Virus record (IMG/VR): IMGVR_UViG_3300025605_000006
DNA from: an uncultured virus (IMG/VR IMGVR_UViG_3300025605_000006)
Lineage: Duplodnaviria; Heunggongvirae; Uroviricota; Caudoviricetes
Reading direction: 5' to 3' (one strand)
Length of the DNA stretch: 64,000 bases
Shown here: positions 1 through 64,000 of the stretch, piece after piece
How the letters are laid out: each line of letters starts with the position of its first letter
Position numbering within the stretch: position 1 is the stretch's first letter
Translations under genes and position numbers: made by a program
Notes under the pieces: generated by a model
Told to the model about the DNA's origin: nothing
Database searches by the model: none
Seen by the model: the letters and a program-made list of their open reading frames with translations, nothing else

Positions 1-39
1 GCCTGCCTACAATCTCGACTACGTTCCCCCCACTGTATA

Positions 40-47762: not shown

Positions 47763-47791
47763 TTGACAAGCGACAGGAAAGCCGGTAAGGT
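47763..47791 (+). promoter_or_regulatory. promoter (leaderless gene)
   Basis: TTGACA-17-TAAGGT-6-ATG. Confidence 0.85.
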
Positions 47792-47797
47792 GAACCC

Positions 47798-48031
47798 ATG
47801 AGCAGCTACTACATAGCGGGGGCCTACAACCTCCCCGGAACAGGAGTCCCCGGTAACGTGATGGGGGACTGCGGACACCGCCACAGGACCGAGGACACCG
47901 CTTGGGACTGCCTCGCTAGGACTACCCGAAAGGTCAAGAGGCTCTACGGGGAGGATGCGTTCTGCGACAGGCAGGTGCTCCTCGTCGTGGATGGAGTGAA
48001 AACTCGACCCCGGAGAAAAGAAATCTTCTGA
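47798..48031 (+). CDS. hypothetical protein
   Basis: ATG at the predicted +1; CGHRHRT...C. Confidence 0.7.
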   Translation: MSSYYIAGAYNLPGTGVPGNVMGDCGHRHRTEDTAWDCLARTTRKVKRLYGEDAFCDRQVLLVVDGVKTRPRRKEIF

Positions 48032-48037
48032 AAGCAC

Positions 48038-48066
48038 TTGACAAGCCGACCAACCCGTGTTAGCTT
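48038..48066 (+). promoter_or_regulatory. promoter for rIIA
   Basis: TTGACA-17-TAGCTT, then AAAGGA SD. Confidence 0.75.
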
Positions 48067-48099
48067 GTATCACACACCACAGGAAAGGAACCCAACACC

Positions 48100-50016: not shown

Positions 50017-50020
50017 GGCT

Positions 50021-50080
50021 GGGGGGGGGTCAGGAAATCTCTGGCCCCCCCTTGACAACGAAGACAATCCATAGTACAGT
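50021..50080 (+). promoter_or_regulatory. hairpin plus promoter for rIIB
   Basis: GGGGGGGTCAG/CTGGCCCCCCC stem abutting TTGACA(50052)-17-TACAGT. Confidence 0.8.
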
Positions 50081-50112
50081 ACCTACAAGCAACCCGAAAG
50101 GAACCCACCACC

Positions 50113-51090
50113 ATGATTCCCTATCAGAACACCGACCGCAGCGTCACCGTCGTTCTCACCACCGATACCGGCACGGAGGTCCACAACCTGCTCAAGGATG
50201 ACAACGGCATCGCTGAGCAGGCGCTGGATCTCCTGACGACCGAGGTGCACGACGAGGCGCTGGTCGCCACGCTGGCCCGCCTCCTCAACCCCGCCTCGGC
50301 TCTGGCCGAGGTGGACGACGACCGGGTGACCGTCGAGGGTCGCACCGTGCTGTTCGACGGAGAGGGCGTGCCGAGCGCACTGACCAGGAAGCTGCTCACG
50401 GTCGCCCGCGAGGGCCTCGACCTGAAGCCGTGGAAGCGGTTCGTGGTGCGGCTGTTCAGCAACCCCAACCGGGCCGCTCAGGCCGAGTTGAACGAGTTCT
50501 TGGAGGCTGGCAACCTGCCCATCACTGAGGATGGCTGCTTCCTGGCCTACAAGCGGGTGTGTAGCGACTACCGTGACTGCTACTCGGGCAAGTTCGACAA
50601 CTCCGTCGGCCAGGTCGTGGAGATGGAGCGATCCGACGTGGATGCCGACCGCAACCGCACGTGCTCGCGGGGCCTGCACTTCTGCTCGCAGGAGTACCTG
50701 AAGCACTTCTACGGGGGCCGCGGTCGCATCGTGGTCGTCAAGGTCGATCCCGCTGACGTCGTGTCCATCCCGATCGACTACAACTACACGAAGGGCCGGA
50801 CGTGGCGCTACGAGGTCGTCGGTGAGGTCGACGTGAGCACCGAGGATGTCGCCCAGGAGTGGGGAGTCTACGCCTTCGACTTCGACGCCTTCGACTCCGA
50901 CTACGAGGAGTGGGATGATCCCCTCGACTACGAGGATGAGGATGAGGATGACCCATTCGACGGAATGGATGAGGATGAGGAGGCCAGCGACGAGGTTATG
51001 AGCGACTTCGGGCAGGTCTACGCTCCTGCCACCAAGCCGAGCAAGTTCAGTTCCTGGTGGAACAAGAACCTTGTTCTCTTCGGTCGCTGA
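50113..51090 (+). CDS. rIIB: RIIB-like protein
   Basis: NP...EL..FL....LPITEDGCFLAYKRV...DNSVG...CSRGLHFCS...VKVDPADVVSIPIDYN..KGR. Confidence 0.92.
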   Translation: MIPYQNTDRSVTVVLTTDTGTEVHNLLKDDNGIAEQALDLLTTEVHDEALVATLARLLNPASALAEVDDDRVTVEGRTVLFDGEGVPSALTRKLLTVAREGLDLKPWKRFVVRLFSNPNRAAQAELNEFLEAGNLPITEDGCFLAYKRVCSDYRDCYSGKFDNSVGQVVEMERSDVDADRNRTCSRGLHFCSQEYLKHFYGGRGRIVVVKVDPADVVSIPIDYNYTKGRTWRYEVVGEVDVSTEDVAQEWGVYAFDFDAFDSDYEEWDDPLDYEDEDEDDPFDGMDEDEEASDEVMSDFGQVYAPATKPSKFSSWWNKNLVLFGR

Positions 51091-51108
51091 CGCAAGGAAG
51101 CGTTGGCC

Positions 51109-51183
51109 GGGAGGGCTGAGGGTTGTGGTGTTCCCCCAGCCCTCCCGAAGCACTTGACAACCAACACCATTTCATGGTACAAA
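51109..51183 (+). promoter_or_regulatory. hairpin plus promoter
   Basis: GGGAGGGCTG/CAGCCCTCCC stem; TTGACA(51154)-18-TACAAA. Confidence 0.65.
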
Positions 51184-51214
51184 GAAACCCCAACAACGAA
51201 AGGAACACCAAACC

Positions 51215-51370
51215 ATGACCAAGTACAAGGCAACCATCACCGTGGAGGGCGAGGCCGAGGATCCTGATAGCATGTTGAGTGACGGCACGTCGCTCCTTCT
51301 GGCCTATCTGGCCCACGAGGGAGAGAAGGTCGTTGTCGACTGGAAGCTCCACGAGGATGATGACGAGTGA
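51215..51370 (+). CDS. small hypothetical protein (51 aa, absent from ORF track)
   Basis: AAAGGA SD; MTKYKATITVEG... Confidence 0.65.
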   Translation: MTKYKATITVEGEAEDPDSMLSDGTSLLLAYLAHEGEKVVVDWKLHEDDDE

Positions 51371-51567
51371 CAGCAACGCTTGAAGCTGAGCCGGAGGCCA
51401 TCAGGGAGGACGGACTGGACTCCCTGGTAAGGGAACTGGATGGGCAGGTCGCTGGCCTCCCTAAATCGGACCTAATAGCGAGAAGCGTTGTCGTGGATGC
51501 TTTCCTGGATCTCAGGAATGTGATGACCGCCACGGTTTTTTCGACGGGGCCAGGGGTTTGCAACTGA
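51367..51567 (+). CDS. hypothetical protein
   Basis: GTGA coupling. Confidence 0.55.
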   Translation: MTATLEAEPEAIREDGLDSLVRELDGQVAGLPKSDLIARSVVVDAFLDLRNVMTATVFSTGPGVCN

Positions 51568-51787
51568 CAACCATGTCGTTGGGGATAGCTACACCACTGG
51601 CGACATGAGCATCCGATAGGTTGAGGGCCACCACATGGTGGCCCTTCTTCCTGTTTGGGAGCAGCCACCCTACCGTGCTGACTAGGTATTCGGAGTTGTC
51701 GGTGGGGGCCTCTAGGTCTTCCCAGGATGTGAGGGTGTCGTGAGCGTCTTTCCAGGTGATGATGACTGGGTGAGGGAGTGAGGGCAT
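51512..51787 (-). CDS. conserved phage hypothetical protein
   Basis: IITWKDA...STVGWL...IPNDMV pattern. Confidence 0.65.
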   Translation of the reverse strand: MPSLPHPVIITWKDAHDTLTSWEDLEAPTDNSEYLVSTVGWLLPNRKKGHHVVALNLSDAHVASGVAIPNDMVVSCKPLAPSKKPWRSSHS

Positions 51788-51839
51788 GAGGTGATTTTAC
51801 CTCTTGACATGGCCCCTTGTATCAGGTAAAGTGTCACAC

Positions 51840-52001
51840 ATGGAAGACATCAAGGAGTACCAAGTGTCAATCGAGTTCACATGCGGGGCAGCCACCCCAG
51901 AGGAGGCAGTCGACCAGTTCCGAGACTGGCTAGCCGAGGGATCGAGAACCATCGTCGTTCACGACCTCGCCAGGCACATCGACCACGAAATCAACCTCTG
52001 A
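51840..52001 (+). CDS. hypothetical protein (leaderless)
   Basis: TTGACA(51804)-17-TAAAGT-7-ATG. Confidence 0.65.
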   Translation: MEDIKEYQVSIEFTCGAATPEEAVDQFRDWLAEGSRTIVVHDLARHIDHEINL

Positions 52002-52013
52002 GGGGAGTCCGCC

Positions 52014-52373
52014 ATGGGAATGGATCTGATCGTCGCAGTCTGCCACCAGCGTCACCCTGAACGCACCTGGGAAAACTTGCAGCAGCGTGTCAGCCAGATA
52101 ACATACGAGGAGGCCGAGCGCCTGTTCGTCGAAGTGGAAGGGGCCGGACCGGACCAACTGATGGACAATCCCGAGGATGACCTCCTGGGCTACGTCAAGG
52201 ACAAGATCACCGAAGGGCTGGAAGTTGGCTGCCTGGGGGCCTGGGACAGCAGCATCCTCCCCATTGAGGATCTAGCCGGGAACACCATCCTTGTCGGAGG
52301 AGGCAACTCCTGGGGAGACACCCCCGACGGGTACGCTGCCGTCATCTACCTGGAAGCATGGGGGGAGTGGTGA
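52014..52373 (+). CDS. hypothetical protein
   Basis: GGAG SD; GGGNSWGDTP. Confidence 0.7.
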   Translation: MGMDLIVAVCHQRHPERTWENLQQRVSQITYEEAERLFVEVEGAGPDQLMDNPEDDLLGYVKDKITEGLEVGCLGAWDSSILPIEDLAGNTILVGGGNSWGDTPDGYAAVIYLEAWGEW

Positions 52374-52426
52374 AACTTTTCAAGAAACCCCTTGACAACC
52401 AGCGATACTTGGCGTAAAGTGAACCC

Positions 52427-52816
52427 ATGAGCAGCAGATCAGAGGTTTACCGTAATCTCCACACCGGCACCTGGAGCCTCCGGGAATCCGTGTGGGATAC
52501 GTCGACTGCCACCTGGAAGAAGCGTGTCGTCGGGCACCCCACTCAGGTCACCTTGCGTGATGCCACCATGGTCGTTCAACCTGGAGGTAACCGCAGAGTC
52601 CGAGAGGAGGTCCGCAAGAACGTGCATGCCTTCATCAAGGGCAAGGTCACCAGATTCGACTTCGATCCTGCCAGCCTCCAGGAAGGGGAGTGGCGTCAAC
52701 TCACCTACAACCCCTACGAGCGCACAACGTTCGTGGATACTGAGACCGGAGAGCCGGTACTCACCGCCTCCGCAGTGCAGATGGATTCCAACCTCGGAGT
52801 CTTCTACACCCCCTGA
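52427..52816 (+). CDS. conserved phage hypothetical protein (leaderless)
   Basis: VYRNLH...WS...RKNVHAF...YNPY; TTGACA(52392)-17-TAAAGT-6-ATG. Confidence 0.8.
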   Translation: MSSRSEVYRNLHTGTWSLRESVWDTSTATWKKRVVGHPTQVTLRDATMVVQPGGNRRVREEVRKNVHAFIKGKVTRFDFDPASLQEGEWRQLTYNPYERTTFVDTETGEPVLTASAVQMDSNLGVFYTP

Positions 52817-52836
52817 ACACCACAAGGAGAACAGAA

Positions 52837-53379
52837 ATGCAACTACTAGACGACATCAACGACGAGATCGCAGCCTGCGAGAAGGCCCAGAGTTGGACTT
52901 CCGGGGTCGCCACCCGCTCAGGGTGGGTGGGGGAACTGAAGGGGCTTGCTGTTGGGGCGGAAGCCTTGGAGACCGCTATCCAGTTCAGGGATGAGGCTTC
53001 CGACTACGAGGAGTGGGCGGAACGCCAGATCGCTTATGACTTGACGTTGACTGACTTCGTGGAGGCTGCTCGGGTAGCAACAGACAAGCAGTACGAGCTG
53101 ACTGAGACAGTGGCACGGAGAGCAAACATCTTCGATGCCCGAGAAGCCATCATCAACAAGTACAACGTCGAACCCAACGCTGAGACCATCGAACAGCTCC
53201 TGGAAGAGGTCCGCAACTTCGGGTGGAACGTCGATGACACCATCAATGGGAACCGTGACGGGATCGTACTCAACGACCAGGAAGCATACTCCTACGCCAC
53301 CTGCCGACGATTCGACTCATACGAGGATCCTGGATACGTGACGTTCGACCTGGAGACCGGGGAGGTTCAGAGATGGTGA
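52837..53379 (+). CDS. hypothetical protein
   Basis: AAGGAG SD. Confidence 0.7.
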   Translation: MQLLDDINDEIAACEKAQSWTSGVATRSGWVGELKGLAVGAEALETAIQFRDEASDYEEWAERQIAYDLTLTDFVEAARVATDKQYELTETVARRANIFDAREAIINKYNVEPNAETIEQLLEEVRNFGWNVDDTINGNRDGIVLNDQEAYSYATCRRFDSYEDPGYVTFDLETGEVQRW

Positions 53380-53618
53380 ATACGCTCGCTTCCTACAAGA
53401 GAGACCAGATTGACAAACTGGTCAAGTACGCCATGCTGAGAGCAGAAAGCTACGACTACGAAGTCAATGAAACCACCGTCATGTGGTGGGATCCGGACTT
53501 TCCGGACTTCCTGCACCTCTCTTTCCAATCCCAGATGGAAGACATGGAGGAATCAGGAACGGTGACCCCTGTCATCATGGCAACCTTCTACCATATCGGC
53601 CCTCTTCGAAACTGGTAG
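53373..53618 (+). CDS. hypothetical protein
   Basis: GGAGG SD. Confidence 0.6.
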   Translation: MVNTLASYKRDQIDKLVKYAMLRAESYDYEVNETTVMWWDPDFPDFLHLSFQSQMEDMEESGTVTPVIMATFYHIGPLRNW

Positions 53619-53619
53619 A

Positions 53620-54033
53620 ATGGGGGCCAAGATGGGCCTCAAAAGAACAACGCCACTGAAGCGCACCCAGTTAACCAGTAGAACCAAGCCGGAGAGCAGG
53701 AAGCAGCTTCAAAGCCACAAACGGATACCTGCAAGATCCAAAAAGGCAGAGAGGCTGTACAGGGAGAAGCGACGACCGCTAGTCGAAAAGCTCCTTAGCG
53801 AAAGGCCCTGGTGTGAAGCCTGTGCGTTGTTTGCTGAACTAGACGGCCACACCTTCTACAGGGTGCGCCCAGCTTCCGACTTGCATGAAGTACGAACCAG
53901 AGGGCGAACGGGTGGAATCCACTCCACTGAGTGGCTCGATCCCGACAACATCAAATGCCTCTGTCGGCCCTGCCACCAGAGGGTAACGGAAGACCGAGAC
54001 GGTGAAGCTACCGCTCTCGGACTTTTAGCTTGA
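53620..54033 (+). CDS. HNH-like nuclease
   Basis: KRTTPLKR, CEAC, DLHE..TRGR.GG, NIKCLCRPCH. Confidence 0.7.
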   Translation: MGAKMGLKRTTPLKRTQLTSRTKPESRKQLQSHKRIPARSKKAERLYREKRRPLVEKLLSERPWCEACALFAELDGHTFYRVRPASDLHEVRTRGRTGGIHSTEWLDPDNIKCLCRPCHQRVTEDRDGEATALGLLA

Positions 54034-54081
54034 CAAACCTCGAAAAAGCTGGTACCATCCAGCCCAAACCAAAGGAACCAC

Positions 54082-54612
54082 ATGAAACTGCTAGAGAAGT
54101 ACGAGACCCGCGCCCGAGAATACGGGTGGGAATTCGAAGCCACGCACACGATCGACGGAGTCGCTATCAAAGTCTGGAACGATGAGTTCTTCGGAGCCGG
54201 ATACCCCCATCTCATGACTGGGGTCATCGTTGGGGGCACGAAGTTGGAGCAGGGGAGGATCTTCATCTCTTACGGCAGCAAGGTCGAGGAGCACAAGGTC
54301 AGTCAGCGTTACCACCTTGACGTTATGGCAAACCACGAACACCCTATTCGATACAAGGTGTTCTACGATGCCTTCCTTGCCACCAACCCGATGGAGCGAT
54401 CGGAGAAGGTCATGGCGTCACGAGCCTCCAGTGAGGCCTTCCCTATTTCGGAACGCCAGGTTCGTAAGGCTCGCATCTGTGGGTTCACCGACGACTACAC
54501 GATGGATCAACTCTGCTGCAGGCTTCTCTCCAGACACCCTGGTGAGATTTACGGATACCTCAAGTGGGAGCACGGAGTTGACATCAGTGAAGGAGTCGAG
54601 GTTGAGGCCTGA
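54082..54612 (+). CDS. hypothetical protein
   Basis: TTGACA(54030)-17-TACCAT promoter, AAAGGA SD. Confidence 0.7.
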   Translation: MKLLEKYETRAREYGWEFEATHTIDGVAIKVWNDEFFGAGYPHLMTGVIVGGTKLEQGRIFISYGSKVEEHKVSQRYHLDVMANHEHPIRYKVFYDAFLATNPMERSEKVMASRASSEAFPISERQVRKARICGFTDDYTMDQLCCRLLSRHPGEIYGYLKWEHGVDISEGVEVEA

Positions 54613-54985
54613 CGACGAGTTCACGGAATCCCTCCTAAACGACCCGACGTGCCGTCGCTGCGGGGGAGCCCTTCCTCCAGCGGAGAACGACGAGTTCCCC
54701 CTTCAGAGAGAAGGAGGACTGGTCGTAAGACTCGACGGGGGCTACGGAATGTTCCACGACTTCATCGACAGTCAGTGCAGGATCAACATCTACTTGTGTC
54801 ACCACTGTGCTGTCGGACTCATGGACTTCATGGGGTTCAACCCCAACTACGATCAGGAGTTCCGGGGTCTACACCCTTACGATGAGCCAGGAAGCCCTTG
54901 CTGTGACTACGGTTGGACTTCTGGCGGTCAGGGGATCGTCTTCGGGCACGAAGATCCGGACTCCCGGACTCCCGGACCCACCTGA
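54602..54985 (+). CDS. hypothetical zinc-binding protein
   Basis: CRRC...GGYGMFHD...LCHHC. Confidence 0.6.
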   Translation: MRPDDEFTESLLNDPTCRRCGGALPPAENDEFPLQREGGLVVRLDGGYGMFHDFIDSQCRINIYLCHHCAVGLMDFMGFNPNYDQEFRGLHPYDEPGSPCCDYGWTSGGQGIVFGHEDPDSRTPGPT

Positions 54986-55025
54986 GGACTTCTGGACTGT
55001 CGGACTGTCGGACTGTCGGACTGTA
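54958..55025 (+). repeat. (GGACTNNN)n array, 3+5 units
   Basis: GGACTCCC x2, GGACCCAC, then GGACTTCT, GGACTGTC x3, GGACTGTA. Confidence 0.92.
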
Positions 55026-55085
55026 GCAGCACATTGCTAACCTTCAAGTGGATAAACTTGATAACGCACGAATAGTGTTCGACAA

Positions 55086-55766
55086 ATGAAGGTGAAGACA
55101 TCTCAAGTGGCTCAAGAGGCAAGACATCCAGCCAAGTTCTCCGACGTCATCCTTGACGAAATCGAGATGATGCTCAAGAAACGAGAGTTCGAGGGGCGGA
55201 TCCTTGACCCCTTTGCTGGAACAGGCAAAATCCACAGACTATCTAGCCTTGAGGGGGTTGAAACAGTTGGCCTTGAAATCGAGCCTGAGTGGGCTGAAAT
55301 GCATCCAGGAACCGTTGTAGGAGATGCCCTGTGCCCTCCGTTCGAGCCTCGTAGCTTTGAAGCGATAGTCACCTCCCCGGTGTACGGGTCGAGAATGTCA
55401 GACCATCACAACGCTAGAGACAACTCCGCACGGAACACCTACAAGCATTGCCTGGGGAGAGACCTGCATCCGAACAATTCGGGGCAGTTGCACTTCGGGG
55501 AACAGTACAAAGAGTTCCACCTAAAGGCCTGGGGGGCTCTACTTCCCCTCATTGACGTCGGAGGGATCTTCATCCTCAATGTCTCAAACTTCATCAAGAA
55601 GGGAGAGGAAGTGGATGTGGTGGGGTGGCATCGAGCCGCAGTGTCCGGACTTGTCGGTTCTTTACCTTTAGAGGTCCGGACTGTCGTTACTCCTAGATAT
55701 AGGAGGGGGTCCAACTCGTCCTTGCGTGTGCCGTCCGAGGTCGTCCTGTTGTGGGACCTCAGCTGA
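55086..55766 (+). CDS. amino-DNA methyltransferase (N4-C/N6-A type)
   Basis: HPAKF, ILDPFAGTG (motif I), IVTSPVY (motif IV variant). Confidence 0.8.
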   Translation: MKVKTSQVAQEARHPAKFSDVILDEIEMMLKKREFEGRILDPFAGTGKIHRLSSLEGVETVGLEIEPEWAEMHPGTVVGDALCPPFEPRSFEAIVTSPVYGSRMSDHHNARDNSARNTYKHCLGRDLHPNNSGQLHFGEQYKEFHLKAWGALLPLIDVGGIFILNVSNFIKKGEEVDVVGWHRAAVSGLVGSLPLEVRTVVTPRYRRGSNSSLRVPSEVVLLWDLS

Positions 55767-56005
55767 GGTCCTGTGGCCGTTCACAGGCATGACGATACGT
55801 AGGTGGTTCCCCACTCATGCCTTCCAGTATGGCAGATGGATCTCCACACGTCAAGGGCAATATCACCCACTTGACAGCCTTGACTTTTCTGTGCAACACT
55901 ATGGATGGTGGAAAAGGTGCGAGTCCCGGACGGGACTAGGACTCAGGGGACGATTTCTCGAAGAAATCGCTTGACACCCGGAGCGGGCGCTGATACCATG
56001 GCCCC

Positions 56006-56167
56006 ATGAGCTTGAACGAGACAGTCGAGGAAGCACAGAAGGCCCTCCGTCAGGAGGGGTTGAAGGGGCGCACGAAGATCATTCGAGTGGCTCACCTCAT
56101 GAGCACTCAGGGTGTCACGGCACAGGAAGCTGTGTCGACTCTCTACCCGCGAACGGTCGACCTGTGA
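56006..56167 (+). CDS. small hypothetical protein (53 aa, leaderless, absent from ORF track)
   Basis: TTGACA(55971)-17-TACCAT-6-ATG. Confidence 0.7.
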   Translation: MSLNETVEEAQKALRQEGLKGRTKIIRVAHLMSTQGVTAQEAVSTLYPRTVDL

Positions 56168-56394
56168 AGCGGTTCGACAACGTTTGCGACGACATCCCGA
56201 CGTGGGAGCTTGTGTGGACCACCAAGAAGGGGAGGACTCGACATCTTGAGTACCTGTCGGAACCTAGCCACCCCCAACAGGCTCTCGTGGTCCGCAAGAG
56301 TCTCCTCAAGGAGAGCGACGTCCCTGCGGGGAGCAACGGGCTCGCCCTTGTGGATGAAAACGGAGGGGAACGGGCATGGATCAGCTTGCACTAG
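56164..56394 (+). CDS. hypothetical protein
   Basis: GTGA coupling. Confidence 0.55.
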   Translation: MKRFDNVCDDIPTWELVWTTKKGRTRHLEYLSEPSHPQQALVVRKSLLKESDVPAGSNGLALVDENGGERAWISLH

Positions 56395-56558
56395 GCAAGG
56401 CCTTGGAGTACCTGCGGTCCCTGGAGGACGATGGGGTGGTCCGAATCGACGGATGGGGTCCGGGGTGGGTCGCTATCACCGCACTCCGTCAAGACTGGGC
56501 AGCGGTAGCTGGGGCCTACCTGGAAAACTTACTTGACATCGATGTGATCGTCAAGTAA
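56376..56558 (+). CDS. hypothetical protein
   Basis: overlapping ORF, GGAGG upstream. Confidence 0.5.
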   Translation: MDQLALGKALEYLRSLEDDGVVRIDGWGPGWVAITALRQDWAAVAGAYLENLLDIDVIVK

Positions 56559-56819
56559 GCTACTGTCAGCGTCAATAGAACGTTTGACTATCGAGGGAAG
56601 CGCCCTGAGAGGGTCGTACTTCCCGAAGAAACCGAACAGGTGTCCTGTGATGAACCCCCAAGCGAGGACGACAGGCCACCTTTTTCGTGGGTGACGGACA
56701 GCGGACGAGAACGCTGTGGACATGGTGTCCTTGCGTGTAGCGACAGCAAACCCATCGTATCCGACGACATAGGCTGTCAGTCCTAGCCAGGCTGCTCCGC
56801 CTGGGGTGATACGAGCCAT
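56529..56819 (-). CDS. small membrane-associated protein of actinophage type
   Basis: AWLGLTAYVVGYD...TMS......HP..RW......GHL. Confidence 0.65.
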   Translation of the reverse strand: MARITPGGAAWLGLTAYVVGYDGFAVATRKDTMSTAFSSAVRHPRKRWPVVLAWGFITGHLFGFFGKYDPLRALPSIVKRSIDADSSLLDDHIDVK

Positions 56820-56867
56820 TCGGACATGGTAGCAGGGGGCCGGGACTCGACCCCCTGCTGCACCGTC

Positions 56868-57080
56868 CTAGCTCTCTCCGCGGTCATCGTGGAGGAGGTA
56901 TCGCACGTCCTCGTGCGTGCACCAGACGCCCCCGTGGGGGAGCGAGTAGAGCTGACGCTCGTCGTCGCTGTAGACGGTGGCGAACTTGGCGTCCGTCCAT
57001 CCTTCCTGGCTCCAAAACAGCGGGTACCCCTCATCGGAGGTGTCTGCCGCAGCGGTGCTGGCGATGTAGTGCTTAGCCAT
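56868..57080 (-). CDS. hypothetical protein
   Basis: - strand TTGACA(57138)-17-TACAGT; LFWSQEGW...ATVY. Confidence 0.7.
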   Translation of the reverse strand: MAKHYIASTAAADTSDEGYPLFWSQEGWTDAKFATVYSDDERQLYSLPHGGVWCTHEDVRYLLHDDRGES

Positions 57081-57198
57081 GTGGGTTTCCCTTTCGTCGT
57101 TGTGAGTGCACTGTAGCAAGGGCGGCTTCACTTGTCAAGCGAAAAGTTTTAGAAAATAGGGGTTGACGATAGCGGGGGGTTCCTGTATTGTCTAAGGC

Positions 57199-57960
57199 AT
57201 GACAACGAACACCGCCACCGAAACCCTCTCGACTGATCAGGTTCTCGTCGGGATGCTGACTGAGAACACTGGGAGCCACTTCCTCGACTCAGGGGGAGCC
57301 TATGGTCGTCACTGGGAGCGAAATCAGGGGATGACTGTCGAGTCGGCCCTGGCAGCCCCCGCGGCTTCCTGGGGATATAACGGGGAGTACGTCGTTCTCG
57401 ACGTGTTCCACTTCCTCCGGGAGCGTGTCGACTTCGATGCTGAGCTTCAGGCTGAGTTCGACGCCTTCACCGACCAGCGTGAGGATGCCGGAGAGTCGTG
57501 GGAGAGTGTTCTCTCCGCGTGGCTGGAAGCCAGCCCCCATCGCCATGTTGAGGGTGGGTACACCTACAACTTCGACAACTCCCTCTCACAGGATGTCGTC
57601 TATGACATCCTTGAGGATGAGTGTGGCGAGTACATCCTGATCCTCCGCATCCACAACGGATGCGATGCCCGCGGGGGGTTCACTTCCCCCAAGTTCTTCC
57701 GGGGAAGCCTGAGCTTCCTGTATGACTGCAACGACTTCAGCGTCTACTGTGAGGGCCAGGAGCCTCCGCAGCGGGAGACCCTACCGGGGTTCCCTGACGC
57801 TGAGCGTCAGACTCACTCCTGGCACTTCTACGGGGGCGATGCATACGATCAGGAGGGCACGAGTGCCGATGTCGACTTCTCCATGAATGACGACGACATC
57901 GTGGAATGCCCCACCTGTGGGGCGGCCTGCCAGATTGAGGCCCCCTACCCCTCTGACTGA
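57199..57960 (+). CDS. conserved hypothetical protein (leaderless)
   Basis: MLTENTGSHFLDSGGAYGRHWERNQ, HNGCDARGGFT; TTGACG(57163)-17-TATTGT-7-ATG. Confidence 0.8.
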   Translation: MTTNTATETLSTDQVLVGMLTENTGSHFLDSGGAYGRHWERNQGMTVESALAAPAASWGYNGEYVVLDVFHFLRERVDFDAELQAEFDAFTDQREDAGESWESVLSAWLEASPHRHVEGGYTYNFDNSLSQDVVYDILEDECGEYILILRIHNGCDARGGFTSPKFFRGSLSFLYDCNDFSVYCEGQEPPQRETLPGFPDAERQTHSWHFYGGDAYDQEGTSADVDFSMNDDDIVECPTCGAACQIEAPYPSD

Positions 57961-57970
57961 GGGGTAGGGG
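57942..57970 (+). terminator. perfect 12-bp hairpin
   Basis: CCCCTACCCCTC-TGACT-GAGGGGTAGGGG spanning the stop codon. Confidence 0.7.
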
Positions 57971-58035
57971 TAGCCCCCGGCAAGTTTCTCGAAAAATCCC
58001 TTGACAGAACACTCAGGCGGAGGTACAGTTACAGC

Positions 58036-58182
58036 ATGCTCACCGAAACCAACCAGAACACCGGCCACCCCCTCACGCTGGATAACGGGGCCACCGTGCT
58101 CGGGTATACCGAGTTCGGCCCCTACATGGGATTTTTCTCTTATGTAGATTTGGAGAACGCATACAAGGAGGAAATGCAATGA
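58036..58182 (+). CDS. small hypothetical protein (48 aa, leaderless, absent from ORF track)
   Basis: TTGACA(58001)-17-TACAGT-6-ATG; ATGA coupling to the next gene. Confidence 0.7.
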   Translation: MLTETNQNTGHPLTLDNGATVLGYTEFGPYMGFFSYVDLENAYKEEMQ

Positions 58183-58391
58183 CGACTCTTGGATACGAGA
58201 TTCGTGGGAAGGACGGGTTTTATGTCCGTCGCCAGATTTCATCCAATACTTTGCAGTTGGTTGTCGGCCACGATAATGTTGCTGGGGGATTGTGGGTCGA
58301 GTGGGCTGAGAATGAGAATGCCCACGAAATTCACAATCACGCCCGACGAATGATTCGCCAGGCACGAAAGGAAGGATTCGCAGATGCTTGA
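58179..58391 (+). CDS. hypothetical protein
   Basis: AAGGAGG SD. Confidence 0.65.
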   Translation: MTTLGYEIRGKDGFYVRRQISSNTLQLVVGHDNVAGGLWVEWAENENAHEIHNHARRMIRQARKEGFADA

Positions 58392-58764
58392 CCCAAGAAT
58401 CCACTACACGCAATTTCCGTGGGACCGATTCAAAGAATGTGTCCGTGCTACGAACGCTGAACTTTGGAACGGTCCATTCAGTCCAGGTTACTGGACCGAG
58501 GTAGATCCTCTGGAGAGTTATGAGTGGAGAGGGTTTCAGAAGGCTCTCGATGATATTCGAGAGATGCTGGAGGATTTGCCTTCCACGATTTACGTCGATG
58601 AGGACGACGAAATCATTGGAGAACTGGACCCGTATGAGAATCCCAACAACTGGGAGGACGATCCCGAACGAGAGGGAGAGTACCTTTACTACGGTCCGTG
58701 GGATTACTCTGCTGTAAACGTAGCAGAAATTCTGCTACCCCGAGAAGTTTACACCCTGATCTAA
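58384..58764 (+). CDS. hypothetical acidic protein
   Basis: AAGGA SD. Confidence 0.65.
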   Translation: MLDPRIHYTQFPWDRFKECVRATNAELWNGPFSPGYWTEVDPLESYEWRGFQKALDDIREMLEDLPSTIYVDEDDEIIGELDPYENPNNWEDDPEREGEYLYYGPWDYSAVNVAEILLPREVYTLI

Positions 58765-58774
58765 GGAGCAAAGA

Positions 58775-59116
58775 ATGCAACGAATCAACATCTTCGGAGC
58801 CAAGGGAGGGGTTGGTTGCACGACCCTCTCCGTAATTCTTGGATACGAAATCTCCAAGTCTGGCGAGAGCGTGTATCTGAATGGTGGGACATACCATACC
58901 GCCAACGTCGAAATGAATCGGGACCTACAAGCCGTGGCAGGAATTCCTGCAATGGTGCAGGATGCGAAGATTTCGGACGGAGCTACTGTTTCGTACAGCC
59001 TTGAAATCCCCGATGATGCATGGCGCATCATTGATAGGGGAACGAACTACGCTGTCATCTTCGACACCCCGAGAGTCCGAGTGCAACGCAACCCGGAACC
59101 CTCAGACCTCAACTAG
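58775..59116 (+). CDS. truncated ParA/MinD-like P-loop protein
   Basis: INIFGAKGGVGCTTLS deviant Walker A; AAGGAG SD. Confidence 0.55.
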   Translation: MQRINIFGAKGGVGCTTLSVILGYEISKSGESVYLNGGTYHTANVEMNRDLQAVAGIPAMVQDAKISDGATVSYSLEIPDDAWRIIDRGTNYAVIFDTPRVRVQRNPEPSDLN

Positions 59117-59321
59117 GGCGGGATGTGCTTGCCCTCATGCCTGACGGGCTCATGGTCTGCGTGGCTGAAACCCAAGACACTCAGGCTGCAATGGTCGCAG
59201 CTCAAGCGGTGGAGGACACACTGGGACGCATCTTGGGGGACCTGAGGTCGTCCGTCCCTCGTCCGTCCGCTTAGGACTGGACGTGGGACAACCCCCCCCA
59301 GAGGGGGCCATCCCTGTCCTC

Positions 59322-59468
59322 TCAGTCCTCCGGGTCGAAGGGGAGGAGCTGAAGGTCCTCACCGACGACCTTGTTGGTGAAGATGAGGAGCTGTCCTTCG
59401 TAGTCCTCCAGCAGCTCTGCTTCTGGGAGGAGGCCAAGGATTGCGTTGCGGAGTTCGGTGTAGGTCAT
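59322..59468 (-). CDS. small hypothetical protein (48 aa, leaderless, absent from ORF track)
   Basis: - strand TTGACA(59503)-17-TATAGT-6-ATG; MTYTELRNAILGLLPEA... Confidence 0.7.
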   Translation of the reverse strand: MTYTELRNAILGLLPEAELLEDYEGQLLIFTNKVVGEDLQLLPFDPED

Positions 59469-59510
59469 GACTTCACTATATCTGAGCAGTTGCTGCTTGT
59501 CAAGCAGTTT

Positions 59511-59609
59511 CTACTCATCCTCGCAGTCGTGACCGTAGGCCCATTCTTCCGCGTCGGTCTCGTCGGTGAGGTCGAAGATTCGGTTGCATTCGGTACATGT
59601 TGCGTTCAT
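59511..59609 (-). CDS. 32-aa zinc-finger-like microprotein (leaderless)
   Basis: - strand TTGACA(59645)-17-TATTGT-7-ATG; CTEC...GHDC. Confidence 0.7.
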   Translation of the reverse strand: MNATCTECNRIFDLTDETDAEEWAYGHDCEDE

Positions 59610-59705
59610 GGCTTGCACAATACAGGAGGGGGAGCCTTCTGTCAACAGGAAAATCTTTTCCAAAAACCCCTTGACAGGGAACCTAAACCTCCCTATAGTG
59701 AAGGC

Positions 59706-60560
59706 ATGAGCAAGCGAGACGCCTACCAAGCAGTCACCGACCGAGTGCTGGCACTCATTGACGAGGGCGTCGCCCCATGGCGCAAGCCGTGGGCCGACCA
59801 GATGCCCCGATCCATGAGCACCGGCAAGACCTACCGTGGGATCAACCTGTTCCTCCTGGATTCCGGGTGGTGGGGAACCTACAAGAAGATCGCAGAGATG
59901 GGCGGTCAGGTTCGCAAGGGGGAGAAGGGGAGCGTTGCAGTGTTCTGGCGCTTCATCGACTCCACCGATGCCGACGGCAACGAGAAGAAGATCCCCCTCC
60001 TGAGGTACTACCGTGTGTTCCGGCACACTCAGGCCGACTGGGCCGACGGGATGCCCGAGAAGTTCAGTCAGTCGAACCTGCCCGGCACCGACAACGAGAG
60101 GATCGTGGCCGCTGAGCAGATCGTCACGACCTATCGCAAGTCGGAGAACGCCCCCCGGTTCGACGCTGAGGGGTGGGATCGTGCCTGCTACATCCCCAGC
60201 ACCGATGCCATTCAGATACCTGCACTGGAACAGTTCGAGGCTTCCGAGCACTACTACTCGACCATGTTCCACGAGATGGGCCACTCCACGGGTGCAGCCT
60301 CTCGACTCAACCGAGAGGGCGTCACCGATACGGTGATGTTCGGGAGTCACCGCTACGCACGGGAGGAACTGGTAGCCGAGATGACCGCTGCCATGCTCAT
60401 GGGGCAGTGCGGGATTGAGGATGCCACCATCGAGTCGTCAGCGGCCTACCTGAAGCATTGGCGAGACCAGATCGAGGCCGACCCCCGGCTCATCGTCAAA
60501 GCCGCAGGGGAGGCACAGAGGGCGGCAGATCACATCCTGGGAGTCACCTGGGATGACTGA
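59706..60560 (+). CDS. ardC: ArdC-family antirestriction protein (ssDNA-binding plus zincin-like domain)
   Basis: GVAPWRKPW, TGKTYRGIN, GGQVRKGEKG, FHEMGHSTG...RLNR, YAREELVAE; TTGACA(59671)-17-TATAGT-6-ATG. Confidence 0.92.
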   Translation: MSKRDAYQAVTDRVLALIDEGVAPWRKPWADQMPRSMSTGKTYRGINLFLLDSGWWGTYKKIAEMGGQVRKGEKGSVAVFWRFIDSTDADGNEKKIPLLRYYRVFRHTQADWADGMPEKFSQSNLPGTDNERIVAAEQIVTTYRKSENAPRFDAEGWDRACYIPSTDAIQIPALEQFEASEHYYSTMFHEMGHSTGAASRLNREGVTDTVMFGSHRYAREELVAEMTAAMLMGQCGIEDATIESSAAYLKHWRDQIEADPRLIVKAAGEAQRAADHILGVTWDD

Positions 60561-60638
60561 GGGAGCGCCCCCCGGAAAGATGAAACTTTTCGGGGGGAAC
60601 CCCTTGACAATCGAACCCAACTGCCCTACCATAACCTC

Positions 60639-61079
60639 ATGGCACTACAGGAACCAGAGGCTATCGGTCGAACCGGCTTTCTGGATGAAAGTCCGTACAT
60701 CGAGACAAAGTTCCAGGACTTCGGACGACAGGACTGGGAGTCCTGGTTCACAGAAGGGCAATGCCACGCCCTAGCCATCGCCATCCATGAAGTCACCGGG
60801 TGGCGAATCTGGGCGGTAGGCACTGACGACTCGTTCGACTGTGACCTATGGGCGGGCCACCTGTTCATCCAGACGCCTACAGGCCACGCCCTAGACATCA
60901 CCGGCATCCTCTCCATGGATGAGATGACCCAACGCTGGGATGACTACATCCCTATCCCCACCTATTCCTTCCCTACCGACCCGGATGCCATCCTTGACTA
61001 CTGGCCGGAACCCCTCATGGGGGTAGCAGAAGCCATGGTGAACTACACGCTCGCGAACGCTGGGCTAGAAAGGGCTTGA
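60639..61079 (+). CDS. hypothetical protein with putative Cys-His-Asp triad (paralogue 1)
   Basis: FTEGQCHALAIAIHEVTGW...GHLF...LDITG; TTGACA(60604)-17-TACCAT-6-ATG. Confidence 0.75.
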   Translation: MALQEPEAIGRTGFLDESPYIETKFQDFGRQDWESWFTEGQCHALAIAIHEVTGWRIWAVGTDDSFDCDLWAGHLFIQTPTGHALDITGILSMDEMTQRWDDYIPIPTYSFPTDPDAILDYWPEPLMGVAEAMVNYTLANAGLERA

Positions 61080-61110
61080 CATGCCGACCCATATGACGTA
61101 CCATGAGTTC

Positions 61111-61518
61111 ATGTCAAACCCCACCCCGGAACTACTGGAAGCCTTCGGATGGTGGGGAGTAGACGACTGGGAAACCTACTTCACAGAGGGCGAATGCCAC
61201 GCCCTAGCCATCGCCATCCACGAGGCAACAGGATGGGATATCTGGGCAGTGGGCACGGGGCCGGACTTCAGTGTAGAGCACTGGGAGGGCCACGTTTTCA
61301 TCGCTACCCCCGACCTGCTCGCACTAGACATCACCGGACTTTCCACGTTTGAGGATCAGGAGCTACTGTGGTCGAACCTGGAACACGCCCCCTTCCTTAC
61401 CTCGGTGGGGGTACTGGAAGCAGTATGGGATCCCCCAGACCTGGAAACTGCTCGCAGCATGGTCGAATGGACTCTATCCAACGCTGGCCTGGAAGTCCCC
61501 GCCCAAGCCGGTCCGTAA
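61111..61518 (+). CDS. hypothetical protein with putative Cys-His-Asp triad (paralogue 2)
   Basis: FTEGECHALAIAIHEATGW...GHVF...LDITG; TTGACA(61076)-17-TACCAT-6-ATG. Confidence 0.75.
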   Translation: MSNPTPELLEAFGWWGVDDWETYFTEGECHALAIAIHEATGWDIWAVGTGPDFSVEHWEGHVFIATPDLLALDITGLSTFEDQELLWSNLEHAPFLTSVGVLEAVWDPPDLETARSMVEWTLSNAGLEVPAQAGP

Positions 61519-61531
61519 GACTCCAAAGGCT

Positions 61532-61571
61532 GGACGCTCGGACTTGCGGACTCTCGGACTCTCGGACTTGC
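61532..61571 (+). repeat. (GGACTNNN)5 array
   Basis: GGACGCTC GGACTTGC GGACTCTC GGACTCTC GGACTTGC. Confidence 0.9.
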
Positions 61572-61628
61572 GAGAAAAACTTCAAGAAACCCCTTGACAA
61601 TCGCAGCAATCCACGGTAAGGTACACAC

Positions 61629-62204
61629 ATGAACATCACGACGAGCCACACCACCACCATCACCTTGGAGCACGAGAAGGTCGGGAAGGTCATCCTGCCC
61701 TACGAGCCCACCGACCCCGACGACGTTATCATCTCCGACGACGGCAACACGATCACCTACGCTACCTTCGACCCGTGGCAGTTCGACTACGAGTTTCCTG
61801 AGGGCGTCGACTTCGTGCAGGGGAACCCCGGCTACATCCACTACTGCAACAACGTGCAGGAGTGGATCGACTCCATCCACGAGACCCCCCACATGAACAT
61901 CTTCCCAGTGGGCGTCTACGAGCACGGGAACATCGAATACTCCCTGGCGGGGGAGTCGATGTTCTCCTCCGACCAGTTCGACTACTGTGTGGGAGCGGCC
62001 ATCGCCATCCCCGGAGGCCCCGAGGGCTTCACCGACCCGGAGGGGGCGGCACGGGCCATCCTGAGGGAGTACACCGACTGGTGCAACGGGGAGACCTACT
62101 CGATCGTCACCCTCACCCGCAACGGAGACACCTGGGAGAATGACACCGACAGGGGAGTCATCGGATACCGCAACGCCCTGGAGGAGGTGGGAGCGGGGGC
62201 CTAG
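61629..62204 (+). CDS. conserved hypothetical protein (leaderless)
   Basis: VYEHGNI...EYTDWCNGETY; TTGACA(61594)-17-TAAGGT-6-ATG. Confidence 0.75.
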   Translation: MNITTSHTTTITLEHEKVGKVILPYEPTDPDDVIISDDGNTITYATFDPWQFDYEFPEGVDFVQGNPGYIHYCNNVQEWIDSIHETPHMNIFPVGVYEHGNIEYSLAGESMFSSDQFDYCVGAAIAIPGGPEGFTDPEGAARAILREYTDWCNGETYSIVTLTRNGDTWENDTDRGVIGYRNALEEVGAGA

Positions 62205-62317
62205 CCCCCTCCCCTTCCCCGAAGGTCCGGACTGACCCTGGATCTACTTACTTAGTCCCGTCGTCCGTCCCGTCCCCAGGACCTCCTGTTGTCCGGTCCT
62301 AGGGTCCTGTCATCCAT

Positions 62318-62346
62318 CGAACGTCCGTTCCTCGAACAGGTGTTCT
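62318..62346. promoter_or_regulatory. tandem LexA (SOS) boxes
   Basis: CGAACGTCCGTTCC-T-CGAACAGGTGTTCT. Confidence 0.65.
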
Positions 62347-62510
62347 GTCCGGTGGGACGCCCTCTCTCCCGACGTCTCCCTCAGTGGGGACTGTGTGTCG
62401 GTGGTTCCTGTGGATAACTCATCGGGTAGACCTTACCATGAGGCTACTTCGTGGCGCAATAGGCAAAATAACCTATTGCGTAGATGCTCTCCAGCTTGTA
62501 TAGTGAAGCC

Positions 62511-62801
62511 ATGAACAACGCCTTGAGCAGCAACCATTTCAGCACAGACATCCAGACCGGGGATGCGATGGAGTGGCTGAGGATCACTCACCCGGCCGAG
62601 TACCGCGGCATCCTTCAGGAGTTCCCCGAGTACGAAACCCGCGTCATGAGCGGGGCGTGGTGGGACACCGACGAGATGGGAGTTGACTTCGAGTGGGGAT
62701 CCTGGCTTACCGATGCCGTCGAGGCCACCGGGCTCGTGTTCTGGGAGGAGGGCGAACCCTTCGCTCTCACCCGAGACGAGGAGGGGTCCCCGACCTTCTA
62801 G
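62511..62801 (+). CDS. hypothetical protein (leaderless)
   Basis: TTGCGT(62476)-17-TATAGT-6-ATG. Confidence 0.7.
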   Translation: MNNALSSNHFSTDIQTGDAMEWLRITHPAEYRGILQEFPEYETRVMSGAWWDTDEMGVDFEWGSWLTDAVEATGLVFWEEGEPFALTRDEEGSPTF

Positions 62802-62924
62802 TTGACAGGACCGGACAAGTGTGCTAGGTGTCCGGTCCCCATAGGACCTCCTTGAGGCTAGGTTGTTTCACCTAATCTCAAGAAACCACTTGACACACCC
62901 GCCCGACGGAGGTAAGGTGAACAC

Positions 62925-63128
62925 GTGAGCACGACACGTCAAGCCGTCAACAACGCGATCCTCCGACTGGAGCACACCCTTGACGCCCTCGGGGTGCAGC
63001 TAGTGGAGTTTCACACAGAGGATGGTAACCAGTGGTCAGAGATCTACCACGCCCTCCGAGACATCACCTACCGGATCGAGAACCTCTCCAGCCGGATGCT
63101 CGATATGGAAGACGAGCAGCAGGAGTGA
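62925..63128 (+). CDS. hypothetical protein (leaderless, GTG start)
   Basis: TTGACA(62890)-17-TAAGGT-6-GTG. Confidence 0.7.
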   Translation: MSTTRQAVNNAILRLEHTLDALGVQLVEFHTEDGNQWSEIYHALRDITYRIENLSSRMLDMEDEQQE

Positions 63129-63199
63129 GGGGGGCCGGGCGTCCAGTCCGAATGGGACAGGATGCTTGACAAGTGAAGATCCCTCGTGTAATGTGGGCA

Positions 63200-63400
63200 T
63201 CAATATTATATTGAGCCCTCCCGCAAAAGTGGGGAGGGGACGGCATGGCGTTAGGTGTCATGCGCCTCTGAAGTGGCGAGAACTTCCCCTAGGGGTCTCA
63301 GTTTCTGTTCGCAGAACCTGAGACCCCTTGATCGAGGGTGGCGGTACCCTGGTGCAACTGTCGGGGGGTGGCAAGTTCGAGGCCCCCACCTGGCCGGAGG
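63200..63400 (+). ncRNA. candidate structured non-coding RNA of unknown class
   Basis: TTGACA(63166)-17-TAATGT promoter not followed by a start codon; at least five consecutive hairpins including a long UUCG-capped stem. Confidence 0.6.
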
Positions 63401-63451
63401 ACTGACAACCTGACACCTTCATAGAGTGATGCTGTCCGGAAGGTAGACTGA

Positions 63452-63637
63452 GTGACGGTGGACGCACACTCTTACCGGGTCCGTTTCCAGGACGGGAGAG
63501 AGGTGTCCTTCGGGACGGACTATCTGTCCGCTGTCCGGTTCGTTTGGACTGTGCGGGGCACACTGTCGGAGTTCGACGAGGACGGGTGCCTGGTCGCTTC
63601 CTACGACTACAGTGTCAGTCCTCTCCCCCTAGGATGA
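63452..63637 (+). CDS. hypothetical protein
   Basis: 61-aa protein-like ORF; start uncertain. Confidence 0.45.
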   Translation: MTVDAHSYRVRFQDGREVSFGTDYLSAVRFVWTVRGTLSEFDEDGCLVASYDYSVSPLPLG

Positions 63638-63767
63638 CGACCACCGGCTCGTCGGGGTCGGTATTGGGGATGGGGATGTTGCCTTCCAGTTCGGTCAGCA
63701 TGGCGGTCATCTCCGGGGTGATGTCGTCGCAGCGGTCGACGTGGTCGAAGTGGTCTGTGTTCTGCAT
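63615..63767 (-). CDS. small acidic hypothetical protein
   Basis: - strand TTGACA(63803) promoter, ATG near the predicted +1. Confidence 0.55.
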   Translation of the reverse strand: MQNTDHFDHVDRCDDITPEMTAMLTELEGNIPIPNTDPDEPVVVILGGED

Positions 63768-63865
63768 GTGTCTATTGAACATCATGGTGGGGGAGCGTGT
63801 CAAGTGGGGTTTTTAGGTGATATAACCCACTTGACAGGAGTTGCTCATCTAGTATCATGGGGCAC

Positions 63866-64000
63866 ATGAAGAAGCGAAGCCCCGCCCGCGAGACGCCCCG
63901 ATCCACGGGCAACATGCTGCGTATCAATCAGCGTGCTCACACGTTCAAGGATCGGAAGAAGGACGCGAGCCGCAAGGCTTGCCGAGGAAAGGTGTACGCA
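63866..64000 (+). CDS. small basic protein, runs off the window end
   Basis: TTGACA(63831)-16-TATCAT-7-ATG; MKKRSPARE... Confidence 0.55.
   Translation, partial: MKKRSPARETPRSTGNMLRINQRAHTFKDRKKDASRKACRGKVYA

Follow-up and report, generated by a model that had tools for sequence, protein, structure and literature searches.

Structured leaders and stem-loop cassettes in phages

Early leaders processed by RNase III are known from phages such as T7, and small RNAs may derive from 5′ UTRs or arise as products of attenuation. The put RNA of phage HK022 is an antitermination RNA that renders RNA polymerase resistant to downstream hairpins. PeSL (promoter-early stem-loop) regulatory cassettes of T4-type phages were reportedly described by Comeau et al. 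in 2014 (PMC4122927). The stem-loops of T4-type PeSLs proved to have terminator or attenuator activity (Arbiol et al., 2010, PMC2839356). The phage region described here resembles the T4-type units, as they are characterized there (PMC2839356), in its strong promoters of the sigma-70-like type and its GC-rich stem-loops with G/C tracts and G-U (G-T) pairs, in the frequent overlap of the stem-loops with the -35 box, in the position of the units ahead of ORFans in a variable early region, and in the insertions, deletions, and replacements between close relatives that fall at the units. At the locus studied, a near-consensus promoter, a hairpin at the -35 box (63136-63168), and break points at the units were found. 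There are also differences. The genes here are mostly leaderless, whereas PeSLs have a Shine-Dalgarno site plus a start codon at their end (PMC2839356). A second hairpin of the locus (63291-63328) has no attached promoter and lies inside the transcript, and a terminator role would be assigned to it by analogy.

The DNA analyzed is a window of 64,000 nucleotides from an uncultured phage-like genome (IMG/VR record IMGVR_UViG_3300025605_000006) with a G+C content of ~54%. The phage, from wastewater or activated sludge, is roughly 150 kb in size and encodes DnaB, RecA, a class II ribonucleotide reductase with an intein, ThyX, Rad52, and an ArdC-like protein. No match of 62800-64000 to cultured phages was obtained by blastn, one large ORF of the window reached at most 39% identity to cultured phages in tblastn, and no relationship to T4 was found in the DNA and tblastn searches. 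The nearest relative is another IMG/VR contig, G001 (148,553 bp).

The first-pass annotation had described 63166-63405 as a single promoter-driven, highly structured RNA of ~200 nt. We found that the supposed RNA combines three things: an early promoter, a non-coding leader with a strong hairpin, and the remnant of a gene tail. The stretch 63201-63451 is most likely an ordinary untranslated leader.

Promoter and organization of the early region

An early-type promoter (TTGACA-17 nt-TAATGT) was identified by pattern search on the + strand at 63166-63194, with the -35 box at 63166-63171 and the -10 box at 63189-63194. The TTGACN-16..18-TANNNT pattern occurs at 25 sites in the window, 23 of which lie within 47.4-64 kb; the initial impression that this promoter is of the same type as those of neighboring cassettes was therefore correct, the pattern being common to 24 other sites. 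Sixteen of the 25 sites have an ATG or GTG 6-7 nt past the -10 box (5 nt at one), which is a leaderless arrangement. No start codon was found at this spacing after the 63166 promoter, where, as had been noticed before, stems follow instead. Based on the 6-7 nt spacing at the 16 leaderless promoters, we infer that transcription from the 63166 promoter starts at ~63199-63203. A stricter sigma-70 scan of 52-64 kb returned 17 promoter-like sites versus 3.9 +/- 1.7 in shuffles; the 63166 site was not listed because TAATGT agrees with TATAAT at only three of six positions.

The -35 box is overlapped by a GC-rich hairpin on the + strand (63136-63168, local fold of -21.1 kcal/mol), which stands after the stop codon of a 67-codon gene (62925-63128). 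Together, this hairpin and the 63166 promoter are a stem-loop/promoter unit like the neighboring ones. The genes adjoining the 63166 cassette each carry a promoter of their own, according to the pattern search of the window.

The non-coding leader

The transcript would open with a non-coding leader (63199-63290, + strand). The codon-usage score of 63201-63290 is negative in all three frames and GC by codon position is flat, in keeping with the earlier view that the promoter is followed by structure rather than by a gene. The predicted fold of the + strand consists of a small A/U hairpin (63200-63214), stem S1 (63219-63234), and a closing helix (63235-63240/63285-63290) enclosing stem S2 (63242-63263) and a 3-bp stem. 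An 8-codon mini-ORF (63245-63271) is located behind a GGAGG-like motif. Two further reading frames were considered. Translation of the leader in the frame of an ORF at 63022-63321, with TTG 63211 or GTG 63229 as possible starts and a frame that is open into the downstream gene ORF69 in G001, was rejected because the codon score is negative, GC3 is ~0.5, and the frame is closed in the window. A 52-codon ORF (63255-63413) was discarded as well; it has no counterpart in G001.

The segment 63199-63332, which includes the strong hairpin, folds with an MFE of -61.4 (z -5.42), and none of 200 shuffles folded as well. In a scan of both strands of the 64 kb, the 130-nt segment at 63211 ranked second among 4258 for structure after GC regression, a rank that is unusual for a passive UTR. 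Nearly all of the structure signal of 63199-63332 rests on the one hairpin at 63291-63328. The leader without the hairpin (63199-63290) gave a z of -1.78 on the + strand, with 8/200 shuffles as good, and -1.58 on the - strand, with 13/200 as good; the stems upstream of the hairpin are predicted structures only marginally better than chance. The following stretch, 63333-63451, showed no structure signal at all (z +0.89, 167/200 shuffles folding at least as well). Over 226 nt (63195-63420), the + strand folds at -107.1 kcal/mol (z -3.97) and the - strand at -95.3 (z -3.44), and four G-U pairs are predicted on the + strand. Of the stems listed in the first-pass annotation, those at 63219-63234, 63242-63263, and 63291-63328 were reproduced in the fold, whereas the one at 63335-63350 and a 3′ element around GTTCGA lie in the part that folds at chance level. 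The proposal of RNA-level structure on the + strand is supported by the hairpin, by the G-U pairs and the more stable fold of this strand, and by the natural variants described below.

Compared with G001, the stretch 63199-63332 contains two base differences and one single-base indel. The 63290 T>G change is located at the end of the closing helix, and 63323 A>G turns a U-A pair of the hairpin into U-G, giving an A.C mismatch on the - strand. A further change, 63263 C>T, was found in runs X4 and X21, the latter of which also contains a variant ~93% identical to the window over 62861-63317, with 29 differences; it converts a G-C pair of S2 into G-U and keeps the pairing. Both natural variants in predicted pairs (63263 and 63323) thus keep pairing on the + strand only, which is weak evidence for RNA pairing on that strand. 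With two distinct sequences only, none of 45 predicted pairs shows a double change and one shows a one-sided change that is kept. The identity of the leader to G001 equals that of the flanking sequence (97.9%), so its near-identity is no sign of selection. With a covariance model of the leader, neither the window nor G001 yielded a second copy; the only extra matches were to the hairpin locus on the reverse strand.

Rfam 15 gave no match at the gathering threshold over the 64 kb, in line with the earlier statement that the RNA could not be assigned to a known family. At E values up to 10, the only matches in 62800-64000 were three to miRNA hairpins, at 16-20 bits versus gathering thresholds of 52-64; all three fall on the 63291-63328 hairpin and are due to chance. 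A promoter-proximal structured leader that ends in a long hairpin before early genes resembles the T7-type processed leaders and UTR-derived small RNAs, but no sequence or model similarity of the leader to these was found in the Rfam searches. Contigs over parts of the region are present in two RNA-library runs, X21 and X23, including an exact 151-nt contig (63083-63233) that runs across the promoter. These data are contigs from libraries that possibly contain DNA, in which transcript starts and ends are not readable, and they are neutral on a discrete RNA.

The leader could be a specific cis-regulatory RNA, either a put-like antitermination RNA or an attenuator that works via translation of the mini-ORF at 63245-63271. 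Its place, between an early promoter directly upstream and a terminator-like hairpin, would suit either role, three C-blocks and three G-blocks could pair alternatively, and the mini-ORF is accompanied by an SD-like GGAGG motif that would be sequestered in S1. However, the leader has no homology or model match to a known leader, the mini-ORF is too short to score and has one codon altered by 63263 C>T, and antitermination is not obviously needed where the neighboring genes have their own promoters. We consider such a specific role very unlikely.

The hairpin at 63291-63328

The strongest structure of the locus is a hairpin on the + strand (63291-63328) that starts 97 nt downstream of the 63166 promoter. 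It has 17-nt arms of 94% complementarity with one U.C mismatch, a UUCG loop, and a predicted stability of -27.4 kcal/mol. In G001, a one-base deletion turns the mismatch into a bulge. Like an intrinsic terminator, the hairpin is GC-rich and stable (~-27 kcal/mol) and lies on the transcribed strand; unlike one, it lacks a U-tract, which was sought in the 7-9 nt directly after the stem. The sequence that follows is UUGAUCGA (TTGATCGAGGGT), and the hairpin was not in the list produced by the terminator scan. A requirement for the U-tract is reported for mycobacterial RNA polymerase (PMC3993855), a requirement that may not apply to the host of this phage.

Eleven local folds of -27 kcal/mol or below were detected in 47-64 kb, and the 63291-63328 hairpin belongs to the same strength class. 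Of the 11, at least four adjoin the next TTGACA or overlap it (50010-50053, 51108-51147, 57924-57969, and 60560-60604). Another extends across a gene end (62179-62221), one is found in the spacer between minus-strand genes (56823-56867), and two are located within ORFs (50291-50335 and 59765-59807). No promoter adjoins the hairpin at 63291-63328, which is at most an orphan stem-loop. By analogy with the systems described above, it may be an attenuator or may influence processing or stability of the transcript. Two forms of the locus part at the 3′ edge of this hairpin, the break point between them.

Short and long forms of the locus

Over 60424-63330, the relative G001 and the window share 97.9% identity; 141 additional nt follow in G001, and identity over 63334-64000 is 89.4%. 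Contigs from two wastewater DNA runs (X4 and X7) bridge this long form, with 195 letters in place of 54 in the window. Bridging was checked in four runs (X4, X7, X21, and X23), and runs X5, X6, and X8-X19 (share 0.47) were not counted as long-form. In the RNA-library runs X21 and X23, loose ends at 63372 read like the long form. The bin 63318-63354 was uncovered in all four runs, which indicates divergence or the long form rather than absence. The short form is letter-identical over 60925-64000 in two public assemblies of JGI metagenomes (L006 and L007), and runs X1-X3, which may be the source sample, contain all sampled words of the window. The occurrence of the long form in X4 and X7 and of the short form in L006 and L007 shows that neither is an assembly artefact. 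The long form is the commoner variant of the phage. Few other relatives were found: protein-guided searches for the locus in IMG/VR gave only G001 and one weak partial match (L004), the JGI metagenome search gave only L006, L007, and one weak match (L008), and two degenerate DNA patterns retrieved from IMG/VR only G001 and an unrelated chance match (L010).

In G001, the extra stretch contains GAGAGAGGA-N8-ATG, which opens a 69-codon gene (ORF69); the gene is intact in runs X4 and X7 as well. The Shine-Dalgarno site lies 35 nt past the hairpin; the same stems are predicted in a fold of the long form, and the Shine-Dalgarno region is open in the centroid. ORF69 has a codon score of 0.241, versus 0.40 +/- 0.11 for 69-codon pieces taken in frame from long genes and -0.07 for the off-frame 95th percentile, and its GC by codon position is 0.52/0.54/0.78. 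To judge by its codon statistics and by the ATG with its Shine-Dalgarno site, ORF69 is probably coding. No Pfam or PHROG family matched it; in two very large protein searches only the protein itself, carried by 22 contigs, was retrieved (99%), and tblastn against cultured phages gave nothing. Its Atlas model is poor (pLDDT 0.48), and the structural matches (scores of at most 0.84, TM below 0.5) are leads only. ORF69 is an ORFan, an observation that we counted against reading the stretch as a leader.

Alignment to G001 identified 63328-63429 as the remnant of about the last 33 codons of ORF69. Missing from the window are 141 nt that carry the Shine-Dalgarno site and ATG of the gene along with about 42 of its codons. 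Codon 26 of the remnant is an in-frame TGA (63403-63405) where G001 has TGT, and the original stop of ORF69, a TGA at 63427-63429, is common to the window and G001. No Shine-Dalgarno site or ATG of an intact gene is present at 63328-63429, the only candidate start being a TTG within the hairpin. In the frame of ORF69, the remnant has a codon score of 0.144 and GC by codon position of 0.62/0.50/0.76. It differs from the ORF69 tail at 26 of 99 sites, distributed 10/7/9 by codon position (pN/pS 0.85), and evolves neutrally. A deletion in the short form appears to be a more economical reading of these sequences than an insertion in the long form, because the remnant keeps the reading phase, composition, and stop codon of ORF69.

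The 3′ 100 nt of the supposed ~200-nt element are thus the truncated tail of a small protein gene with a chance-level fold, and the view of the whole as one element is not supported. The GTTCGA hexamer (63375-63380), which had been likened to a tRNA T-loop and is the only resemblance to a tRNA, tRNA-like, or Y-RNA-like molecule, falls in Lys-Phe codons of the remnant. G001 reads GTTCGC at this place, and adjoining bases also differ; in the alignment read by eye, the inner predicted pairs of the stem around the hexamer read differently in G001. By eye, too, the flanking bases form no 5-bp stem of the kind that, with a 7-nt UUCRANY loop, makes up a T-arm, and ARAGORN found no tRNA or tmRNA gene in the window. 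The related suggestions of a tRNA mimic, a protein sponge, or an anti-defence decoy met with no such feature in the sequence and no Rfam or ARAGORN match.

Comparison of the window with G001 over 43.6-64 kb revealed three structural differences, and every one of them coincides with either a promoter or a hairpin's 3′ foot. At promoter 55971 there is a whole extra leaderless cassette, a replacement begins at the 3′ foot of a hairpin at 58087-58122, and the 141-nt deletion begins at the 3′ foot of the hairpin at 63291-63328. This distribution would also fit a stretch that has no RNA function and is debris of cassette shuffling (a promoter without its leaderless ORF, a gene-end hairpin left orphaned, and an ORF cut short), tolerated as long as the next gene, ORF61, is still expressed. 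The neutral remnant, the near-chance structure of the leader without its hairpin, and the lack of a promoter at this hairpin, in contrast to four or more of the strongest 11 local folds, point in the same direction. Against this, every assembly seen and both diverged forms retain the promoter, the leader, and the hairpin in this order, the leader bears no trace of a former reading frame, and the promoter is still a full TTGACA-17-TANNNT match. On balance, we regard mere debris as quite improbable.

Dependence of ORF61 on read-through

The first intact CDS downstream of the promoter in the short form is a 61-codon gene on the + strand (ORF61, 63452-63637) with a GTG start and a Shine-Dalgarno site, GGAAGG, upstream at 63438-63443. 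No match to ORF61 was found by tblastn against cultured phages. The comparison with G001 gave a pN/pS of 0.26, with 3/2/9 differences by codon position, and indicates that ORF61 is under purifying selection. A pattern search for TTGACN-16..18-TANNNT between 63195 and 63452 found no promoter, and none was seen by eye between the hairpin and ORF69 in G001. The closest candidate for an internal promoter of ORF61, CTGACA (63402-63407) with TAGAGT (63422-63427), was rejected; the two boxes are only 14 nt apart and the pair is absent in G001. With no promoter after the hairpin, ORF69 and ORF61 depend on read-through of the hairpin.

The 3′ end of ORF61 is overlapped by 23 nt by a convergent small gene on the - strand (63615-63767, pN/pS 0.43), which is apparently leaderless. 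Judging from its putative promoter, the transcript of this gene would run towards the hairpin. It might be supposed that the hairpin serves the - strand or the DNA, either as a bidirectional stop for a convergent transcript from near 63800 or as a hot spot of recombination or a cruciform. Its two arms come close to a palindrome, the covariance model of the leader scores 29 bits on the reverse strand, no strong hairpin stands between the minus-strand gene and the hairpin at which it points, and two of the three break points relative to G001 are at the 3′ feet of hairpins. However, on the - strand the G-U pairs and the 63323 A>G change of G001 become A.C mismatches, the more stable fold is that of the + strand, and ~290 nt separate the end of the minus-strand gene from the hairpin beyond it. 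The least probable of the explanations considered is therefore a role on the - strand or in the DNA, to which we give hardly any credence.

Proposed working of the locus

We propose that gene-cassette turnover in an early, ORFan-rich region made this composite stretch. The host-type promoter at 63166-63194 would start a transcript at ~63201, the first ~130 nt of which would be non-coding and end in the 17-bp hairpin at 63291-63328. In the long form, the hairpin would be followed by the Shine-Dalgarno site and ORF69, and then by ORF61. In the short form, a deletion of 141 nt from the 3′ foot of the hairpin would have taken away the start of ORF69 with its ribosome-binding site and about 42 codons, and the tail of the gene (63328-63429) would have been left with a premature TGA, drifting neutrally. 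The stretch 63201-63451 would then form a ~250-nt 5′ UTR of ORF61. By analogy, the hairpin might act in cis as a partial terminator (attenuator) that throttles the near-consensus promoter, as a processing or stability element, or as both, and any ~130-nt RNA ending at the hairpin would be a product of attenuation and not of a dedicated RNA gene.

An untranslated leader of the 63452 gene is favored because the promoter of the long form must read through the hairpin to ORF69 and ORF61. The first-pass annotation had proposed a novel discrete RNA and had itself named the 5′ UTR of the 63452 ORF as the alternative; it is the latter that has the better support. We judge the chance that the stretch is a ~250-nt 5′ leader in which the hairpin attenuates, processes, or stabilizes the transcript to be somewhat better than even.

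The outline from promoter to hairpin is that of a neighboring cassette with an RNA in place of the ORF, and we counted this against an untranslated leader, since it fits a small RNA gene. The stretch ~63201-63330 would then be an early trans-acting phage sRNA, working by base pairing or protein binding, with the hairpin as its terminator and residual read-through supplying the downstream genes. The promoter, the missing ORF, and the strong hairpin match this arrangement, as do the z of -5.42 and the second rank for structure, the lack of a coding signature in 63201-63290, the two variants that keep pairing on the + strand only, and an element that is unchanged while the adjoining downstream sequence has been deleted and has diverged. 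On the other side, the body of such an RNA without the hairpin is barely above shuffles (z -1.78, 8/200), no U-tract follows the hairpin, and transcription can get to ORF69 and ORF61, neither of which has its own promoter, only by passing the hairpin. There is likewise no Rfam family and no second copy in the window or G001, the near-identity to G001 is that of the flank and no sign of selection, and the RNA-library contigs run across the promoter (63083-63233) and show no transcription start. A trans-acting sRNA is unlikely in our estimation, if not to be neglected.

A related and slightly more doubtful possibility is that the ~130-nt unit from promoter 63166 to 63328 is an early sRNA carried as the cargo of a PeSL-like mobile cassette among leaderless ORFan cassettes. 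If this were true, an RNA gene would be shuffled by the same promoter and stem-loop modules as the ORFans, and it would possibly act on host or defence functions beside the ArdC-like anti-restriction gene.

Implications for phage early regions

As regards RNA, the outcome of our analysis is mostly deflationary: an apparent new class of structured RNA resolves into a leader, a hairpin of the gene-end type, and the tail of a pseudogene. This case should help to keep similar composites off lists of candidate new RNAs. The surrounding PeSL-like array of leaderless cassettes is a more interesting object than the RNA. In this early region, consensus promoters drive leaderless ORFans and are punctuated by stem-loops with G/C tracts. 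By analogy, the region looks like the modular shuffling of the PeSL type known from T4-type phages, here in an unrelated phage and with a different mode of translation start. If confirmed, this would suggest that PeSL-like cassette turnover is a general solution and not a peculiarity of T4.

Early gene cassettes

A pattern search for TTGACN-16..18-TANNNT promoters returned 25 matches across the whole window, 23 of them in 47400-64000, and we read the latter segment as an array of early-type cassettes. At 16 of the whole-window matches an ATG or GTG lies 6-7 nt past the -10 box (5 nt at one site), an arrangement referred to here as leaderless. The array resembles the promoter-early stem-loop (PeSL) modules of T4-type phages; however, its genes are leaderless and the phage is unrelated. 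Several GC-rich hairpins were observed at gene ends in 47400-64000, some of them overlapping the next -35 box. The early region also carries a gene with an ArdC-like N-terminal domain and a zincin metallopeptidase domain, of the anti-restriction type (59283-60557).

Two adjacent leaderless genes of about 145 codons each are paralogues: 60732-60904 and 61165-61337 share 73-74% DNA identity (blastn). The pair looks like a tandem duplication inside the cassette array. The start codon of a leaderless 67-codon gene at 62925, located 6 nt past the TAAGGT -10 box, is GTG in the window and ATG in the closest relative (G001, an IMG/VR contig) as well as in contigs from two wastewater DNA runs (X4, X7) and one RNA-library run (X21).

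An inverted repeat at 63796-63838, containing TGTCAA and TTGACA, appears to represent two divergent back-to-back promoters, the first serving a leaderless gene on the minus strand, with its ATG at about 63767, and the second a gene on the plus strand that begins at 63866. At 56533-56561, promoter-like matches on both strands stand face to face inside a palindrome located where ORF 56376-56558 ends. The plus-strand match is directed into convergent minus-strand genes, so it may either drive antisense transcription or have arisen by chance.

A second non-coding stretch was found at 62205-62483, where about 280 nt without a long ORF separate a 191-codon gene from a 105-codon gene; non-coding length of this order is thus not unique to the promoter, leader and hairpin element under study. 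Short repeats of GTCC/CGTCC occur in this stretch, and a hairpin of 9 bp (62455-62480) lies immediately upstream of the ATG. The promoter consensus has no match there.

Inteins

An intein carrying a LAGLIDADG domain splits the class II ribonucleotide reductase gene (6900-11468). A ThyX-like ORF (37381-38781) also matches an intein-splicing domain.

Structural differences from the closest relative

Structural comparison of the window with G001 (L014/L015) covered 43.6-64 kb and revealed three differences. One is an additional leaderless cassette, about 363 nt long, at promoter 55971 (55957-55976). The other two lie at 3' hairpin feet: a replacement of about 1 kb (58122-59173), which starts at that of hairpin 58087-58122, and a 141-nt indel (63330-63334) at that of hairpin 63291-63328. 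The location of all three at a promoter or a hairpin foot suggests that such sites are hot spots for recombination or deletion.
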